Positions 5,699-59,808 of a stretch of 64,000 nt of DNA are shown one piece after another. The stretch's first letter is position 1. Every line of letters starts with the position of its first letter. The DNA lies in contig DAIOHD010000001.1 of NCBI GenBank assembly GCA_036744835.1, positions 208,967 to 272,966 of the forward strand. The letters run 5' to 3'. Source of the stretch: Candidatus Magasanikiibacteriota bacterium. GTDB taxonomy: Bacteria > Patescibacteriota > Patescibacteriia > Magasanikbacterales > GWA2-37-8. The notes under the pieces were generated by a model, which worked only from the letters and a program-made list of their open reading frames with translations, ran no database searches and had not been told where the DNA came from. Made by a program: the position numbers and the translations under genes.

Positions 5699-6574
5699 AT
5701 GGACAGGTGTAGACAAGATCTCCACCTGCATATTGGTGGAGATAATTTAGAAAACATTGTAAAAAATGCAAAAAAGTCCGGGATCAGAACACTTTCATTA
5801 CTTGACAAGGAGAGTGTGGAAAGGACTTTGGAGATTGAAGCGGTTTGTAAAAAGTACAGTTTGAATTGTTTGCGTGGCGTGGAGGTTAATGCTAAATATG
5901 CAAACAAGGTCTATCATTTTCTGATATATAAGTTTAGAAATATTCAGAAAGTGCGGGGATTCTTTAAGAGAGAAGCCAAAGCCAAGTATAAACGAGTAAT
6001 TAAGGTGATTGCTCTTTTACAAAAACTAGGCTGGCAAATTGATCTGGAAAAATTGGGCAATATACCCAAGACTAATCTCGGGCGGCGTTTGGTGGTGGAA
6101 AATATTCGAAATCACGCAGACAATCAGGAAAGGCTATTAAAAGAAGGGATTTTTAGTAATGATGATTTTTATCGCCGTTATTTGGAACTTGGTAAACCGG
6201 CTTACTATGATCGTAAGGTTAGTAGTGTTTATCAGTTGATCAAAACTATGCGTGCGGCTGGAGCCTTGATAGTCTGGGCTCATCCATGGCGAACCATCAG
6301 AGAAAATTTTGGAGAAGAAAATTTCCGAGATAATTTTTCGGGAGTTTTCAATTATTTTAGGAAGATAGGGATTGATGGAGTTGAGGTTTACTATCCTGAA
6401 GTTCCTAAAGAGACGGTAATTTTTATGTATTGTCTTTGCCGGAAAAATCAACTGTTGGTTACCATAGGTTCTGATAGTGTGGGGTCTGAATTGATTCCAC
6501 TCCCTATAATAATCAAAGGGAAGGAACCTAATGATATTTCTAATGCCAACTCGCTTTACAGAGGGGTGCTCTGA
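5699..6574 (+). CDS. PHP-domain metal-dependent phosphoesterase
   Basis: DLHLHIGGDN, GVEVN, WAHPWR and GSDS motifs in PHP order; locally higher GC than neighbours. Confidence 0.5.
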   Translation: MDRCRQDLHLHIGGDNLENIVKNAKKSGIRTLSLLDKESVERTLEIEAVCKKYSLNCLRGVEVNAKYANKVYHFLIYKFRNIQKVRGFFKREAKAKYKRVIKVIALLQKLGWQIDLEKLGNIPKTNLGRRLVVENIRNHADNQERLLKEGIFSNDDFYRRYLELGKPAYYDRKVSSVYQLIKTMRAAGALIVWAHPWRTIRENFGEENFRDNFSGVFNYFRKIGIDGVEVYYPEVPKETVIFMYCLCRKNQLLVTIGSDSVGSELIPLPIIIKGKEPNDISNANSLYRGVL

Positions 6575-6612
6575 CAACAGACCCCCTCTTTTTTTGTGTC
6601 AAGCTCTTACCC

Positions 6613-6640
6613 TTGACAAATAATTTAATCTTGATATAAT
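6613..6640 (+). promoter_or_regulatory. Consensus sigma-70 promoter (TTGACA-N16-TGaTATAAT, extended -10) of the rplJL operon
   Basis: -35 at 6613-6618, -10 at 6635-6640 with an upstream TG, about 165 nt upstream of rplJ. Confidence 0.6.
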
Positions 6641-6641
6641 G

Positions 6642-6765
6642 GTTTCACCATAGACAGTAGCTCCCCTTTGGGGTTAAATAAGCTACCGAGGTAATCTCAC
6701 CCAAATTTTTGGGGTCAGGTCGAAGATGACCGTTTTGTCTGTGGTATAACCATAGATTTTTTTTG
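6642..6765 (+). promoter_or_regulatory. Structured 5' leader of rplJ, candidate L10(L12) autoregulatory leader
   Basis: 10-bp closing helix (CCATAGACAG/CTGTCTGTGG, one G-U) enclosing hairpins TAGCT-CCCCTTTGGGG-AGCTA, CCCAAA/TTTGGG and GGTCA/TGACC. Sits between promoter and start codon. Confidence 0.4.
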
Positions 6766-6806
6766 TTAACGCTTAATTTCTAAGCGTTAGCGAGATCTAA
6801 AAAATT

Positions 6807-7331
6807 ATGCCAAAAACAAAACAACAAAAAAAGGTAATCGTGGAAAGTTTAGGTGATGACGTTAAGAAAGCAAAAGCTGTAGTTTTTGCCAATTTCCAAG
6901 GTTTAACTGTCAAAGATTCCGAAGATTTACGTAAAAAATGTCGTAATGTCGGAGTAAATGTGATGGTGGCCAAAAAAACCTTATTACGTAAAGTTTGCGA
7001 AGAGCTTGGTTTAAGTGATATTAATCCAAAAACTTTTGAAGGTGGTGTTGCCACTTTTACAAGTCAAAACGATGAAATTGCCCCGGCCAAAGTAGTCGCA
7101 GATTTTGCCAAACAAAATGATAAAGTTCTTATTTACGGTGGAATTTTAGAAAATAAATTTATTGCCGGTGATTATGTAAAAAACTTGGCCTCATTACCAA
7201 GCAAACAAGAACTTTTAGGCAAATTGGTTGGTACTATCAACGCTCCGGTTTCTGGATTTGTAAATGTTTTAGCCGGAAATTTACGTGCTTTAGTTTCAAT
7301 TTTGAATAATATCAAAGAATCAAAAGCTTAA
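6807..7331 (+). CDS. rplJ: Ribosomal protein L10
   Basis: Typical L10 N-terminus and length, immediately upstream of rplL. Confidence 0.9.
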
Positions 7332-7378
7332 TTAATTTAAAATTTTCAGTTTATAGACTGAAGTCTAATAATAAAATT

Positions 7379-7777
7379 ATGTCAGAAGAAAAAAATGTAG
7401 TTGTTCCTGAAAAGTTTCAATCTTTGGTGGAACAAATTGAAAAATTGTCTGTCTTGGATTTAGCCGAATTGGTTAAAGTCTTAGAAGAAAAATTTGGTGT
7501 TTCTGCTGCTGCTCCAGCTATGATGATGGCCGCTGCCCCAGTTGCCGCTGCTGCTGCTGAAGAAAAAAGCGAATTTAATGTTGAATTAACTAGCTGCGGT
7601 GATAACAAAATCAATGTTATCAAAGCTGTAAAAGAAATTACTGGTTTAGGTCTTGCTGAAGCCAAAGCTTTGGTTGACGCTGCTCCCAAAGTAATTAAAG
7701 AAGGTGTTAAAACTGCCGAAGCTGAAGAAATGAAAAAGAAAATTGAAGAAGCTGGTGGTAAAGTAGAATTGAAATAA
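7379..7777 (+). CDS. rplL: Ribosomal protein L7/L12
   Basis: Ala/Pro hinge plus conserved C-terminal domain ([24 protein letters not shown]...[21 protein letters not shown]). Confidence 0.9.
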
Positions 7778-52990: not shown

Positions 52991-53155
52991 ATGCCGTCGA
53001 CAAATGCAGATAATATGATTAAATTGGAGTGCACGGAATGTAAGCGTGTAAATTATTTTTCCAATAAAAACAAGAAAATCTTGAAAAATAGATTGGAAAT
53101 GAAAAAACACTGCTTGCACTGTAAGAAACATACTGTACATAAAGAAACAAAGTAA
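52991..53155 (+). CDS. rpmG: Ribosomal protein L33 (54 aa; below ORF-track cut-off)
   Basis: Manual translation [54 protein letters not shown] matches L33 ([11 protein letters not shown]...[20 protein letters not shown]) with its zinc-ribbon Cys pairs. Confidence 0.75.
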
Positions 53156-53189
53156 TGATTAAGGCAGATTTTTTCTGCCTTAATTTATT

Positions 53190-53260
53190 AGGGAGTTCGT
53201 ATAGTGGTAGTACAAGGGTCTCCAAAACCTTTAGCGCGGGTTCGATTCCTGCACTCCCTG
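53190..53260 (+). tRNA. tRNA-Trp (anticodon CCA)
   Basis: Acceptor AGGGAGT/ACTCCCT, D stem GTA/TAC, anticodon stem AGGGT/ACCTT (one G-U), loop CTCCAAA, T arm GCGGG-TTCGATT-CCTGC. Confidence 0.8.
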
Positions 53261-53263
53261 CTA

Positions 53264-53303
53264 ATAAAAATATCACCAATTTAAATTGGTGATATTTTTA
53301 TTA
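53264..53303. repeat. Perfect 40-bp palindrome immediately 3' of tRNA-Trp
   Basis: AATAAAAATATCACCAATTT|AAATTGGTGATATTTTTATT (20-bp arms, no mismatch). Confidence 0.6.
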
Positions 53304-53305
53304 TT

Positions 53306-53440
53306 AGCAAGAAGCAGGAATCGAACAGGGAAAGGGTGAAAACGGCAGTTTTCACTTTAGGAGGAAAGGTATTGGAAAACCTGAAGGTTTTCCAAGGAGG
53401 AACGAAGTGACGACGTGAGCATTCCTGCACTCCCTGCACA
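53306..53440 (+). other. Structured element closed by a duplicated 17-nt tRNA-Trp 3' segment; candidate small RNA or integration scar
   Basis: GCAGGAAT at 53314-53321 pairs with ATTCCTGC at 53421-53428; internal hairpins GTGAAAAC-GGCA-GTTTTCAC (53336-53355) and GGAAAACC-TGAA-GGTTTTCC (53374-53393); 53421-53437 is identical to tRNA-Trp positions 53245-53261. Confidence 0.35.
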
Positions 53441-53469
53441 AAAAAAATACCCATCCGGGTATTTTTTTG
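53441..53469. terminator. Bidirectional intrinsic terminator
   Basis: A-run, TACCC-ATCC-GGGTA, T-run. Confidence 0.5.
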
Positions 53470-53476
53470 TGCAGGA

Positions 53477-53505
53477 TTGACAAAACCCCTCATCTATGTT
53501 ATACT
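53477..53505 (+). promoter_or_regulatory. Sigma-70 promoter (TTGACA-N17-TATACT) of the DEAD-box helicase gene, with a ~110-nt 5' UTR
   Basis: -35 at 53477-53482, -10 at 53500-53505. Confidence 0.5.
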
Positions 53506-53620
53506 TGCCTTTCTTTAATCTCAAGTCGTCAAAATTGACAGACTTGCGACTCGAACCTCTCTTACTGTGTCATACTGGTAGTGACTCACTTCAAAGGATA
53601 TCGGGTCATTAAATAAATAT

Positions 53621-54892
53621 ATGATACAGAAAAACAATTCGGCTATCCGATTTGACAATCTTGGTATAGCCCCAAAACTGTTGGATATTCTCCGACAAAA
53701 CAATTTTACCGTGCCAACACCTATCCAGCATCAATGCATTCCCCAAGCTTTGGAAGGTAAAGATATTGTGGGTGTGGCGCAAACCGGCACCGGAAAAACT
53801 TTAGCTTTCGGTTTGCCGATGATTCAGCGCTTGTCCGCTCTCAAAGGACAAGGTCTCATTTTATTACCGACTCGTGAACTTGCTTTGCAGGTTGATGAAG
53901 TTTTAAACCAAGTCGGTAGGTCTTTTGGCTTGAAAACCGCTATACTTATTGGCGGAGCTTCCATGGGTCAACAGATCCAGGCTTTGCGTCGCAATCCACA
54001 CATTATCGTCGCGACTCCTGGACGAATGAACGATCATCTTCAACAAAAAACCGTTTCTTTACAAAATACAAAAATTATAGTGCTTGATGAAGCCGACCGT
54101 ATGCTTGATATCGGTTTTATGCCACAAATTGTGGAGATTTTAAAAAATGCCCCCAAAGAAAGACAGACCTTGATGTTTTCCGCGACTATGCCACAATCTA
54201 TTGCTACTCTTGCCGCGCGTTATATGAAAATGCCACTTCGTATAGAAGTTGCTCCGTCGGGTACTCCGGCTGCGAATGTGGAACAAGAAATTTTTATAAC
54301 ATCCAAAGAATTAAAATTGGCTTTACTGGAAAAAATATTATCAGATAATCCAGGTCAAGTTTTGGTTTTTTCACGTACTAAACATGGAGCAAAAAAAATT
54401 TCCAATAATCTTCGCGATATCGGTTTCAAGGCAGTGGAGATACATTCCGATCGCACCTTGGCTCAACGTCGAAATGCGATGGATGGATTTAAATCCGGAC
54501 AATATCGCATTTTGGTAGCTACAGATATTGCCGCTCGTGGAATTGACGTTACCGGAATTTCTTTGGTTATAAACTATGATTTACCCGGAAACTCTGAAGA
54601 TTATGTGCATCGTATCGGTCGGACTGGTCGTGCTGGAAAATTTGGCAAAGCCATTTCTTTCGCTACTCCAGATCAACGCAGTGATATTAGACAAATTGAA
54701 AGATTGATTAAAAAGACCATTCCTATTTTGGCCTTACCACCATTACAACCTCGTCATAATATAGCTAGAATCAATATTTATCAAAATGAACGTTCAGAGG
54801 TGCGTCGTAAACCTTTCAAAAAAAATGATTTTTTCTCTTCTCGCCGTAAAAAACAAAATCCGAAAAGAAAGCGTTACGGTATAATAAATTAA
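53621..54892 (+). CDS. DEAD-box ATP-dependent RNA helicase
   Basis: Q motif, AQTGTGKT, PTRELA, DEAD, SAT and HRIGRTGR; basic C-terminal tail. Confidence 0.85.
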   Translation: MIQKNNSAIRFDNLGIAPKLLDILRQNNFTVPTPIQHQCIPQALEGKDIVGVAQTGTGKTLAFGLPMIQRLSALKGQGLILLPTRELALQVDEVLNQVGRSFGLKTAILIGGASMGQQIQALRRNPHIIVATPGRMNDHLQQKTVSLQNTKIIVLDEADRMLDIGFMPQIVEILKNAPKERQTLMFSATMPQSIATLAARYMKMPLRIEVAPSGTPAANVEQEIFITSKELKLALLEKILSDNPGQVLVFSRTKHGAKKISNNLRDIGFKAVEIHSDRTLAQRRNAMDGFKSGQYRILVATDIAARGIDVTGISLVINYDLPGNSEDYVHRIGRTGRAGKFGKAISFATPDQRSDIRQIERLIKKTIPILALPPLQPRHNIARINIYQNERSEVRRKPFKKNDFFSSRRKKQNPKRKRYGIIN

Positions 54893-55198: not shown

Positions 55199-55609
55199 TT
55201 ATCTTAAAATTGCTTGATTGTCCAATGTATCATTAACTAACTTGTCAGCCTCTTTATTATTTTCGCGTAAAGTGTGGCGATAAGAAACTTTCTTAAATTG
55301 TGTCGCGGCGTTATAAGCTTGAATAAAAAGTTTTTGCAAAGTCGGTTCTTTAACTTTGTAAAGTCCTTTCATTTGATTGACTATCAGTTCGCTATCTAAA
55401 ATACAATCTATTTCCGTCCCGCCAAGTTCATAAGCTCTTTTGAGTCCGGCAATGAGAGCACTATATTCGGCAAAATTGTTAGTTTGTTCTCCTAAATATT
55501 TTCCAAAAGCATCTATATTTTTTCCGGTTTCGTCTTTGATTACTATGCCTGCGGCAGCCGGGCCAGGATTTCCTCTCGCACCGCCGTCTGTAAATATAGT
55601 TAATTTCAT
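55199..55609 (-). CDS. rnhA: Ribonuclease HI
   Basis: IFTDGGARGNPGPAAAGIVI N-terminus and RNase H fold length. Confidence 0.8.
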   Translation of the reverse strand: MKLTIFTDGGARGNPGPAAAGIVIKDETGKNIDAFGKYLGEQTNNFAEYSALIAGLKRAYELGGTEIDCILDSELIVNQMKGLYKVKEPTLQKLFIQAYNAATQFKKVSYRHTLRENNKEADKLVNDTLDNQAILR

Positions 55610-58533: not shown

Positions 58534-59808
58534 ATGGATTTTAATACAAGCAATATAAATATTTCCGGACCGACACCGACCAAAAAAAGAGCGGGAAAAT
58601 ATTTTGGTTTATATCTATCTTTAATTTTATTTATTGTTTCTTTTGGCTTAGGGTTTTTTTCCGGACAATATTATTTTATCCATAAAAATATTATTGATGA
58701 AAACGGAGAAGTGGAACAAACAAAAGTTTTAAAATTAAATAGAATGTTAAATCATTCCGATGAGATTGAATTTGAACAATTTTGGGAAGTTTGGGATAAA
58801 ATAAAAGAAAAATATGTTAAAAAAGATGTTAAAGATGAAGATCTTTTTTATGGTGCGGTACAGGGGTTGGTTTATGCATTAGGAGACCCCTATTCTTTAT
58901 ATTTTCCACCAAAAGCTGCAGACGAATTTTCTAAAGATTTATCAGGAGAACTTGAAGGTATCGGTGCTGAAATAGGTATCAAAAATCAATTATTAACAGT
59001 AATCGCTCCGTTGGCAAACACGCCGGCAGAAAGAGCGGGATTAAGGCCTGGAGATGTTATTTTGCAAATCGGCGAAGAAATTACTTTGGGTATGGATGTT
59101 AATACTGCTGTATCAAAAATTAGAGGTAAGGCTGGTACAGAAGTTATTTTATCAGTTAATAGAAATGAATGGCTTGAACCTAAAGAAATAAAAATTGTTC
59201 GTGCTAAAATAAGTGTTCCGTCAGTTACTTTCAAGATGCAGAATAATGAAGTAGGCTATTTTAGGGTTATGCAGTTTAACGAAGATACGCAAAAACAATT
59301 TGATAAAGGAATCAAAGAACTTCAAAATCGCAGTGGTAAAAAAATAATTTTGGATTTACGAAATAATCCGGGTGGTTATTTGGACCAGGCTATTCGTATG
59401 GCTAGCGAATGGATAGAAAAAGGAGTAGTTGTCAGTGAAAAAGGAAATGATGGCAATAACAAAGAACATGAGACTACCGGTAGTGCGCGTTTACAAAATA
59501 TACAAACAGTAGTTTTGATCAACGGTGGTTCAGCCTCTGCGTCAGAGATCGTTGCCGGGGCTTTGCAAGACAATAAAAAAGCTACCATTATTGGAACAAA
59601 AACTTTTGGTAAGGGTTCAGTACAAGATTTTGAAATGTTTCCTGATGGTTCAGCACTTAAGTTGACAGTTGCTGAATGGTTTACGCCAAACGGAAGAAAT
59701 ATCAATAAAGAAGGGATAGTTCCTGATATTGAAGTGATAGAGGAATGGGATAAAGAGAAAATCGGCGAGGATGTGATGATTGATAAAGCACTCGAGTTGT
59801 TAAAATAG
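58534..59808 (+). CDS. ctpA: S41 carboxyl-terminal processing protease (PDZ plus peptidase), membrane-anchored
   Basis: PDZ (GLRPGDVILQIGEE), S41 blocks (LDLRNNPGGYL; NGGSASASEIVAGALQDN; TFGKGSVQ). Confidence 0.75.
   Translation: MDFNTSNINISGPTPTKKRAGKYFGLYLSLILFIVSFGLGFFSGQYYFIHKNIIDENGEVEQTKVLKLNRMLNHSDEIEFEQFWEVWDKIKEKYVKKDVKDEDLFYGAVQGLVYALGDPYSLYFPPKAADEFSKDLSGELEGIGAEIGIKNQLLTVIAPLANTPAERAGLRPGDVILQIGEEITLGMDVNTAVSKIRGKAGTEVILSVNRNEWLEPKEIKIVRAKISVPSVTFKMQNNEVGYFRVMQFNEDTQKQFDKGIKELQNRSGKKIILDLRNNPGGYLDQAIRMASEWIEKGVVVSEKGNDGNNKEHETTGSARLQNIQTVVLINGGSASASEIVAGALQDNKKATIIGTKTFGKGSVQDFEMFPDGSALKLTVAEWFTPNGRNINKEGIVPDIEVIEEWDKEKIGEDVMIDKALELLK

Follow-up and report, generated by a model that had tools for sequence, protein, structure and literature searches.

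A putative tRNA-linked repeat downstream of tRNA-Trp in a Patescibacteria genome

Why does a short non-coding segment that directly follows a tRNA gene end in an exact copy of that tRNA's own 3' end? This question is raised by the tRNA-Trp locus of the 64-kb stretch of Patescibacteria DNA analyzed here (the window), which is part of a metagenome contig and whose features are collected in Table 1. The CCA end is absent from the encoded tRNA-Trp sequence. The 3'-terminal 17 nt of the tRNA (53245-53261), which start at A58 in the T loop and include one base beyond the discriminator, are the template of the repeat, and the downstream copy is their sole other match in 64 kb, even when up to two mismatches are allowed (0.00 expected). 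The segment bounded by the two copies comprises 159 bp and is non-coding. A first-pass annotation made from the letters alone had reported the exact 17-nt copy and interpreted the locus as an insertion with structured cargo. Its sequence statements on this region are borne out, and the repeat search, the copy search and the folds show that the pattern is not due to chance.

Table 1. Coordinates of the tRNA-linked features in the window and of comparable units on other contigs
Feature	Position	Strand	Basis or remark
tRNA-Trp (CCA anticodon)	53190-53260/61	+	ARAGORN; Rfam tRNA 60.6 bits
Hairpin 1, perfect A/T-flanked palindrome	53262-53303, 42 nt (21+21)	+	repeat search
5' arm	53307-53326	+	repeat search, DNA search, folds
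Purine-rich interior	53327-53420	+	sequence, repeat search, composition
Hairpin A, GTGAAAAC/GTTTTCAC	53336-53355	+	perfect
Hairpin B, TTGGAAAACC(T)/(A)GGTTTTCCAA	53372-53395	+	perfect, 10-11 bp
Exact 17-nt direct copy of tRNA-Trp 3' end	53421-53437 (= 53245-53261)	+	
Hairpin 2, A-tract/T-tract, terminator-like	53433-53475	+	repeat search
tRNA-Val element	12431-12762	-	same kind as tRNA-Trp element
tRNA-Val	12689-12762	-	
tRNA-Val repeat copy 1	12621-12706	-	19 nt of tRNA 3' end, terminator and half of hairpin
tRNA-Val arm (AGGGAT..GAAC) and 103-nt purine-rich interior	12518-12620	-	
tRNA-Val repeat copy 2	12431-12517	-	
Non-CPR TLR-like unit, L096	3290-3540		IMG/VR contig
Non-CPR TLR-like unit, L136	140-620		IMG/VR contig
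Non-CPR TLR-like unit, L145	760-1000		IMG/VR contig

Several details of the locus differ from the first description. The palindrome after tRNA-Trp is indeed perfect, but it spans 42 nt rather than the 40 bp (53264-53303) given before. Folded as hairpin 1, it has an energy of -23.4 kcal/mol (z -7.5 versus shuffled sequence). The terminator placed after the copy is confirmed as hairpin 2 (-27.5 kcal/mol, z -7.7 versus shuffled sequence), which is followed by the promoter of a DEAD-box helicase gene (TTGACA-17-TATACT, 53477-53505). Between hairpin 1 and the copy lies a segment of approximately 107 nt with the two internal hairpins, and the whole structured segment, copy included, measures approximately 125 nt. 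Described earlier as GC-rich, this segment is purine-rich instead, with 62% A+G and 50% G+C. Its two hairpins, both reported as 8 bp and perfect, are perfect, but hairpin B is longer than stated. AGGAGG occurs twice in the interior (53359-53364 and 53395-53400), and directly 5' of the copy there is a GACGACGTGAGC tail. Upstream of tRNA-Trp, after the stop codon of rpmG, an 11-bp terminator-like hairpin is present (53158-53184, + strand). This hairpin is kept in the related loci L154 and L155, and a different one occupies its place in L151; tRNA-Trp may be transcribed from a promoter of its own or by polymerases that continue from rpmG.

The first-pass annotation overlooked an inverted repeat in the arm. 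Positions 53314-53326 (GCAGGAATCGAAC) are a perfect 13-nt inverted copy of 53240-53252, corresponding to tRNA positions 53-65 (T loop and T-stem 3' strand); 0.04 such copies are expected in the DNA search. The preceding nucleotides (53307-53313) form a degenerate complement of the acceptor 3' strand, matching at 5/7 positions with a 2-nt offset. In the folds, the arm can pair in two alternative ways, over 13 bp with the tRNA T arm or over 8 bp with the downstream copy. The latter pairing, GCAGGAAT (53314-53321) with ATTCCTGC (53421-53428), is the closing helix noted previously and is called helix P1 here. It takes up the first 8 nt of the copy; the other 9 nt are the acceptor 3' strand and the discriminator. 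The minimum-energy fold of the tRNA strand prefers another pairing, the 6-bp CAGGGA/UCCCUG, over P1. An H-type pseudoknot that combines P1 with CAGGGA/UCCCUG was rejected on geometric grounds, as it would require a loop of only 2 nt to bridge a stem of 8 bp. Because the arm inverts the tRNA T arm, the 3' part of the tRNA, hairpin 1 and the arm constitute a single long imperfect palindrome (53240-53326; -45.4 kcal/mol, z -12.4).

Repeats of this kind have been known since 1978 in tRNA and rRNA operons of E. coli (Egan & Landy 1978; Rudd 1999; PMC8144298) and have been named tRNA-linked repeats, or TLRs (Stenum et al. 2021, PMC8144298). A TLR is defined by its last 18-19 bp, which are identical to those that end the tRNA or rRNA gene upstream of it (PMC8144298, after Rudd 1999). 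E. coli K-12 carries 22 TLRs at 10 loci, with 1-5 per locus; they have no known function, and the claim that rtT acts in the stringent response was retracted (PMC8144298). In rrnA, rrnB and rrnD, the TLR (rrA/rrB/rrF) is located between terminators T1 and T2, and its RNA stems from read-through of T1, which is 87% efficient (PMC8144298). This RNA begins at the RNase E site located 3 nt after 5S and extends to 3 nt past the copy, which the same authors proposed to be a processing signal; the RNAs bind Hfq and CsrA in vitro via GGA motifs (PMC8144298).

The tRNA-Trp element exhibits the features that define this class. It begins 1 nt after tRNA-Trp on the + strand, and the tRNA-Val element is placed likewise on the - strand. 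The identity with the tRNA 3' end amounts to 17 exact nt at tRNA-Trp and 19 nt at tRNA-Val, the former being two short of the E. coli count only because CCA is not encoded. The number of units, one at each window locus and two or at least three at loci of relatives, is within the one to five seen in E. coli. When rrnB was checked directly, the order 5S-T1-TLR-18-nt copy-T2 was observed; the window Trp locus has the same succession of hairpin, element, copy and hairpin. Hairpin 1, which is terminator-like and may terminate efficiently, corresponds in position to T1, and hairpin 2 to T2. The copies are 176 bp apart in the window Trp locus, 150 in rrnB and 178 in tyrT (about 150-190 bp). Also in common are a stable-RNA gene directly upstream on the same strand, an exact copy of that gene's last 17-19 nt at the 3' end, a purine/GGA-rich interior with several hairpins, and the occurrence of one to several units per locus. 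Unlike the E. coli TLRs, the window element belongs to Patescibacteria, shows no detected sequence similarity to them beyond composition, and has a copy that ends at the discriminator plus one base, since CCA is not encoded. Its arm is a perfect 13-nt inverted T-arm copy, whereas rrnB has only a T-loop-like GGATTTGAAC. Taken together, these features suggest that the element is probably a TLR-type tRNA trailer, that is, a small structured RNA module directly 3' of the tRNA gene and on the same strand. The assignment rests on class-defining features, not on membership in the RtT sequence family. The element is already known in kind; what is new is the phylum and the absence of sequence similarity to the E. 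coli family.

A further structural parallel is found in tyrT-tyrV of E. coli (RtT/RttR, RF00391), in which a 178-bp repeat is present in 3.14 nearly identical tandem copies, as compared to a single unit at the window locus. There, arm GGGGAAGGAT pairs with ATCCTTCCCC around a GA-rich multi-hairpin interior, and the copy, 19 nt in length, has A58 of the T loop as its first base, like the copy in the window. In the annotation, the RttR RNA has its 3' end exactly at the CCA of this copy. In both systems, the closing helix joins the tRNA 3'-end copy to an arm that inverts the T-stem 3' strand, a single-stranded acceptor-strand tail comes after that helix, and the same GA-rich motifs (GAGCGA, GACGA, CCCGAAGG-like) precede the copy. 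The 8-bp helix of the window encloses two hairpins, and the Rfam consensus has an equivalent helix. Unlike the window locus, tyrT has no hairpin between the tRNA and the unit. With E<=10 allowed, the RtT model still finds nothing in 53100-53650, and at its gathering threshold (45 bits) it has no hit anywhere in the window, while the positive control scores 133-137 bits on four E. coli units. At permissive thresholds, Rfam matches in the window region and in three non-CPR examples described below are limited to tRNAs and spurious hits of miRNA-model hairpins. The sRNAs from tRNA 3' external transcribed spacers, such as 3'ETS-leuZ, resemble the proposed trailer as small RNAs freed from a tRNA primary transcript by tRNA-processing cuts (PMC8144298), but 3'ETS-leuZ has neither a tRNA 3'-end copy nor an arm and acts by base-pairing to other sRNAs.

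Interior similarity was assessed by pairwise local alignment against dinucleotide shuffles. Between lineages, it is mostly not above that expected from composition: the window Trp interior gives z 3.3 with E. coli unit 0 and z 0.7 with the window Val interior. Exceptions are close relatives, and E. coli versus L096/L145 (z about 5). A MAFFT alignment of the Trp and Val units was out of register and was left out of the results. Because interior similarity is mostly not significant, we claim a shared architecture, and not homology or common descent, with the E. coli TLRs. Short ORFs occur within units of both kinds. The E. coli tyrT TLR carries an annotated 29-codon 'protamine-like' ORF (tpr). 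In the window, a 12-codon ORF starting with TTG (53372-53410, + strand; MENLKVFQGGTK) has an AGGAGG 7 nt upstream; its length is kept at the same place in L151 and the ORF is missing in L154. It is not claimed as a gene because it lies inside hairpin B.

The same layout is found at tRNA-Val, as the first-pass annotation had proposed, with a longer direct repeat. This repeat spans 86-87 nt and is 100% identical except for one A in a run; the hairpin that it half includes has 16 bp. A 9-bp hairpin separates an inverted acceptor strand (TACACGCTGA) from the inverted T arm.

The suggestion that further tRNA 3'-end duplicates be sought also proved fruitful. Loci of Patescibacteria were gathered via rpmG, and the DNA downstream of every tRNA in them was scanned for a repeat of that tRNA's 3' end. 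Orphan copies no more than 600 nt after tRNA-Trp or tRNA-Tyr were detected at L014, L018, L024 (both Tyr and Trp), L034, L040 and L076, giving at least 8 units at 6 relatives' loci. There are two units at L014, L024-Tyr and L040 and at least three identical ones at L034; the range over all loci is 1 to at least 3. L017 may be a further case. Every clear case has the order tRNA, hairpin, inverted T loop/T-stem copy, purine-rich multi-hairpin interior and direct 3'-end copy; the inverted arm is matched to its own neighboring tRNA, and the direct copy begins in the T loop. In 19/21 catalogued units, the arm and the first bases of the copy form a P1 helix of 5-10 bp, with a 3' tail of 8-14 nt. In the two exceptions, the best helix is inside the interior (L024-Trp) or reaches only 4 bp (the decayed L154). 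Other pieces lie outside this pattern. After tRNA-Trp in L011 (5943-6060) and L069 (5739-5840), a direct T-arm-like piece is present (GGTTCGATACCC / GGTTCGATTCCTAG), accompanied in L011 by an inverted one (GGGAATCGAA), and neither locus has a full 3'-end copy; these pieces may be degenerate or variant units.

IMG/VR viral contigs were scanned for a T loop followed by an inverted T loop. Most hits are convergent tRNA gene pairs, and only 3-4 loci are relevant. The non-CPR contigs L096, L136 and L145 display the layout after tRNA-Arg and tRNA-His, with the CCA encoded and copied; L096 and L145 have a complete inverted T arm. The three units also have an A-tract/T-tract hairpin in common (loop CCGGTGG/CTGTGA/CCAGTGG). 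Elsewhere on these few-kb contigs, endolysin-type ORFs were noted at L096 3-824 and L136 1257-1856 (domains Glyco_hydro_25; Peptidase_M15 and PG_binding), and the tRNA clusters of L096 and L136 may be phage-borne or located at prophage ends.

Is the element inherited with the tRNA, and is it constrained? Scanning metagenomes with the 3' end of tRNA-Trp brought up L151, L154 and L155, three close relatives that also carry rpmG-tRNA-Trp. Their rpmG DNA is 84-87% identical and their tRNA 99-100% identical to those of the window. L151 contains the full element, with an interior 79% identical to that of the window. In L154 the interior is shortened and the hairpins are lost, and in L155 only the arm and the first ~25 nt are left, with the 3' half and the copy gone. 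Hairpin 1 has a completely different sequence in each of the four, yet it is always a perfect hairpin. The genes downstream are unlike in all four. Because the element occupies an orthologous place in three close relatives, it is vertically inherited, and because L154 and L155 have lost these parts, it is dispensable. Units are also gained, since L014 and L018 align over the tRNA and one unit and L014 has an extra ~310-nt unit inserted precisely beside the tRNA. The element thus accompanies its tRNA and is under partial constraint, yet it can disappear. Within a 42-nt core, 41 positions are identical between the window and L151, as compared to 87% identity in rpmG and 64% in hairpin 1. Hairpin A of L151 has two pairs changed on both sides in a compensatory manner (T-A to A-T and A-T to C-G).

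These comparisons bear on a serious rival explanation, namely that the element is a selfish or neutral repeat devoid of function. In this account, tRNA 3'-end copies of both orientations, direct and inverted, are made and homogenized purely at the DNA level. Terminator palindromes would be lengthened by template switching, gene conversion and unequal crossing-over would act at the 3' ends of tRNAs, and the units would then drift and decay. Palindrome correction is an established mutational mechanism, and by our reasoning it could mimic compensatory change without selection. The union of tRNA 3' end, hairpin 1 and arm in one palindrome is what such processes would leave behind, the 86-nt Val repeat takes in the terminator and resembles a local duplication, and both the decay in L154 and L155 and the poor conservation of interiors across lineages point the same way. 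Deletion of the rrn TLRs in E. coli has only weak phenotypes (PMC8144298). Against this explanation, a purine-rich multi-hairpin interior recurs beside different tRNAs in several phyla, the 42-nt core is more conserved than rpmG and hairpin 1, and E. coli TLR transcripts are discrete, processed RNAs. Overall, we regard a functionless repeat as unlikely, albeit the alternative to be taken most seriously.

The reading as an inserted cargo calls for separate consideration. The element could be a miniature or remnant site-specific integrative element, inserted in the T loop of the tRNA gene, with the 17-nt repeats as attL/attR cores and an integrase from another locus acting in trans. The stretch from the T loop to the tRNA end is a classical sublocation for tRNA-targeting integrases, and the repeat spans this part. 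Like the repeat at tRNA-Trp, att-site repeats are direct repeats of the tRNA 3' part from the T loop and can accrete in tandem. Arrays are indeed found, the extra unit of L014 sits beside an intact tRNA with its own hairpin, and non-CPR examples occur beside phage lysis genes on IMG/VR contigs. However, no integrase, transposase or reverse transcriptase gene is present within ~10 kb of the Trp or Val locus, where the neighbors are housekeeping genes, and the 159-bp segment is accompanied by neither a recombinase nor a larger island. Loci of 80 GTDB relatives contain no tRNA 3'-end copy more than ~600 nt from its own tRNA, and thus no full-size islands. The copy also omits the adjoining T-stem 5' strand that a core-type attR site needs. 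In addition, the orthologous position is common to three relatives whose downstream genes all differ, and the E. coli equivalents are stable, transcribed chromosomal features. The unit, only ~180 bp long, further departs from att-site repeats in its conserved internal architecture. A literature search for integrase or miniature-element explanations yielded nothing relevant. An integrative origin is therefore improbable. The earlier idea of an insertion is only partly supported: the extra unit of L014 and the arrays in L034, L040 and L024 are signs of unit gain, but membership in the known TLR class, vertical inheritance and the lack of a nearby recombinase speak against it. A retroviral-style primer-binding site with polypurine tract was also rejected, there being no reverse transcriptase nearby; the RNase_H/RVT_3 ORF at 55199-55609 encodes an RNase H-type protein.

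The element had also been said to occupy the position where secE-nusG normally follow rpmG-tRNA-Trp. This does not agree with the synteny in relatives: of the 16 checked in which rpmG and tRNA-Trp share a strand, only L076 has secE-nusG 3' of tRNA-Trp. In L076, an element lies between tRNA-Trp and secE, displacing neither. The secE-nusG pair is absent from the 64-kb window. At 5699-7777 (+ strand), an L10 leader (6630-6772) precedes rplJ-rplL, and upstream of this leader is a PHP-domain ORF, not rplK-rplA; this genome has the usual secE-nusG-rplKAJL cluster split up.

Which strand would be the product? No sigma-70-type promoter precedes the segment on either strand. Raw fold energies favor the tRNA strand in 17/19 units, but z-scores do not, and counts of G.U versus A.C in P1 do not separate the strands either. 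For the window Trp unit, the opposite strand folds more neatly (z -4.7 vs -2.9), with a 7-bp acceptor-like stem stacked on the 8-bp helix; its two G.U pairs are A.C mismatches on the tRNA strand. An RNA of the opposite strand would resemble a tRNA: its 5' end would be complementary to the copy, its 3' part would combine a true T-loop sequence (GTTCGATTCC) with an acceptor-like strand, and hairpin 1 would terminate it. The complete inverted T arm of L096 and L145 is consistent with such a molecule. In contrast, the minus strand has no promoter-like site between hairpin 2 and the copy, and its only promoter candidate (53524-53496, 9/12) must read through hairpin 2. A C-to-U change in the arm of L151 gives a G.U pair on the tRNA strand but a C.A mismatch on the opposite strand, and the acceptor-like stretch is unconserved among the window, L151 and L154. 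The RttR and RrB RNAs of E. coli are of the tRNA/rRNA strand, and neither ARAGORN nor Rfam detects a tRNA or tmRNA at the opposite-strand site. We consider an opposite-strand RNA very improbable; the missing minus-strand promoter, the L151 G.U pair and the E. coli RNA strand favor the tRNA strand. A tmRNA, a permuted tRNA and a T-loop intron were rejected as well, since an intact tRNA is present upstream and nothing further is detected by ARAGORN or Rfam.

For the TLR-type trailer, the comparison with E. coli allows a working scheme to be proposed. Some RNA polymerases would pass hairpin 1 and stop at hairpin 2, and the cut that matures the tRNA 3' end would create the 5' end of the trailer. 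The arm would then hold the copy in the T-stem-like helix P1, such that the acceptor-strand/discriminator signal is displayed as in a tRNA. The copied 3' end is presumed to act as a 3'-processing signal, and the same 3'-maturation machinery may define and stabilize the 3' end of the trailer. With CCA missing from the gene, the likely enzymes would be RNase Z or exonucleases plus the CCA-adding enzyme. RNase E, Hfq and CsrA, which act on or bind the E. coli TLR RNAs, may be inapplicable here. The expected product would be a discrete RNA of ~125-175 nt made in step with the tRNA. At the DNA level, the direct repeats permit unequal recombination, which leads to the tandem arrays and the gain and loss of units in relatives. 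The match of arm and copy to each tRNA has several possible origins: insertion with target duplication, gene conversion with palindrome correction, or selection.

TLRs have been known for almost 50 years without an assigned function, and the descriptions in the literature searched concern only E. coli and its relatives. That the same architecture occurs beside different tRNAs, both in a candidate phylum with reduced genomes and on non-CPR contigs unrelated to it, provides comparative material beyond E. coli. The features that persist are a copy whose start is in the T loop, an inverted arm matched to the tRNA, the two hairpins and the purine-rich multi-hairpin interior; what fails to persist is the primary sequence. 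A bolder reading, which we consider rather doubtful, is that TLR-type elements are ancient or have evolved repeatedly across several phyla (Pseudomonadota, the non-CPR contigs resembling Bacillota or their phages, and Patescibacteria) as trailers that mimic the acceptor/T-arm half of their own tRNA. The matching of both arm and tail to the own tRNA would then imply a tRNA-specific function. If so, the RNA could serve as a decoy or buffer for enzymes or toxins whose target is the 3' end of that tRNA, or in RNA-guided homing to tRNA genes. For annotation, short repeats of a tRNA 3' end are not necessarily footprints of integrated elements.

Two further observations were made during this analysis. 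After tRNA-Thr (GGT) of L151 (4678-4751, minus strand, with ~100 nt downstream) and at L002 1761-1930, there is a partial second copy of the tRNA 3' half, which begins in the anticodon loop and has a structured insert of ~40 nt at the loop. One possible interpretation is a pseudo-tRNA that carries an intron-like insert, another a tRNA-linked repeat of a different kind; tRNA-Thr(GGU) of the window has no such partial copy. Finally, an Rfam match to Rickettsia sRNA47 (59356-59659, - strand; 68 bits, above the gathering threshold) lies wholly within, and antisense to, the CDS of a Peptidase_S41 (Ctp-type protease; 58534-59808), and probably reflects conserved coding sequence rather than an sRNA.
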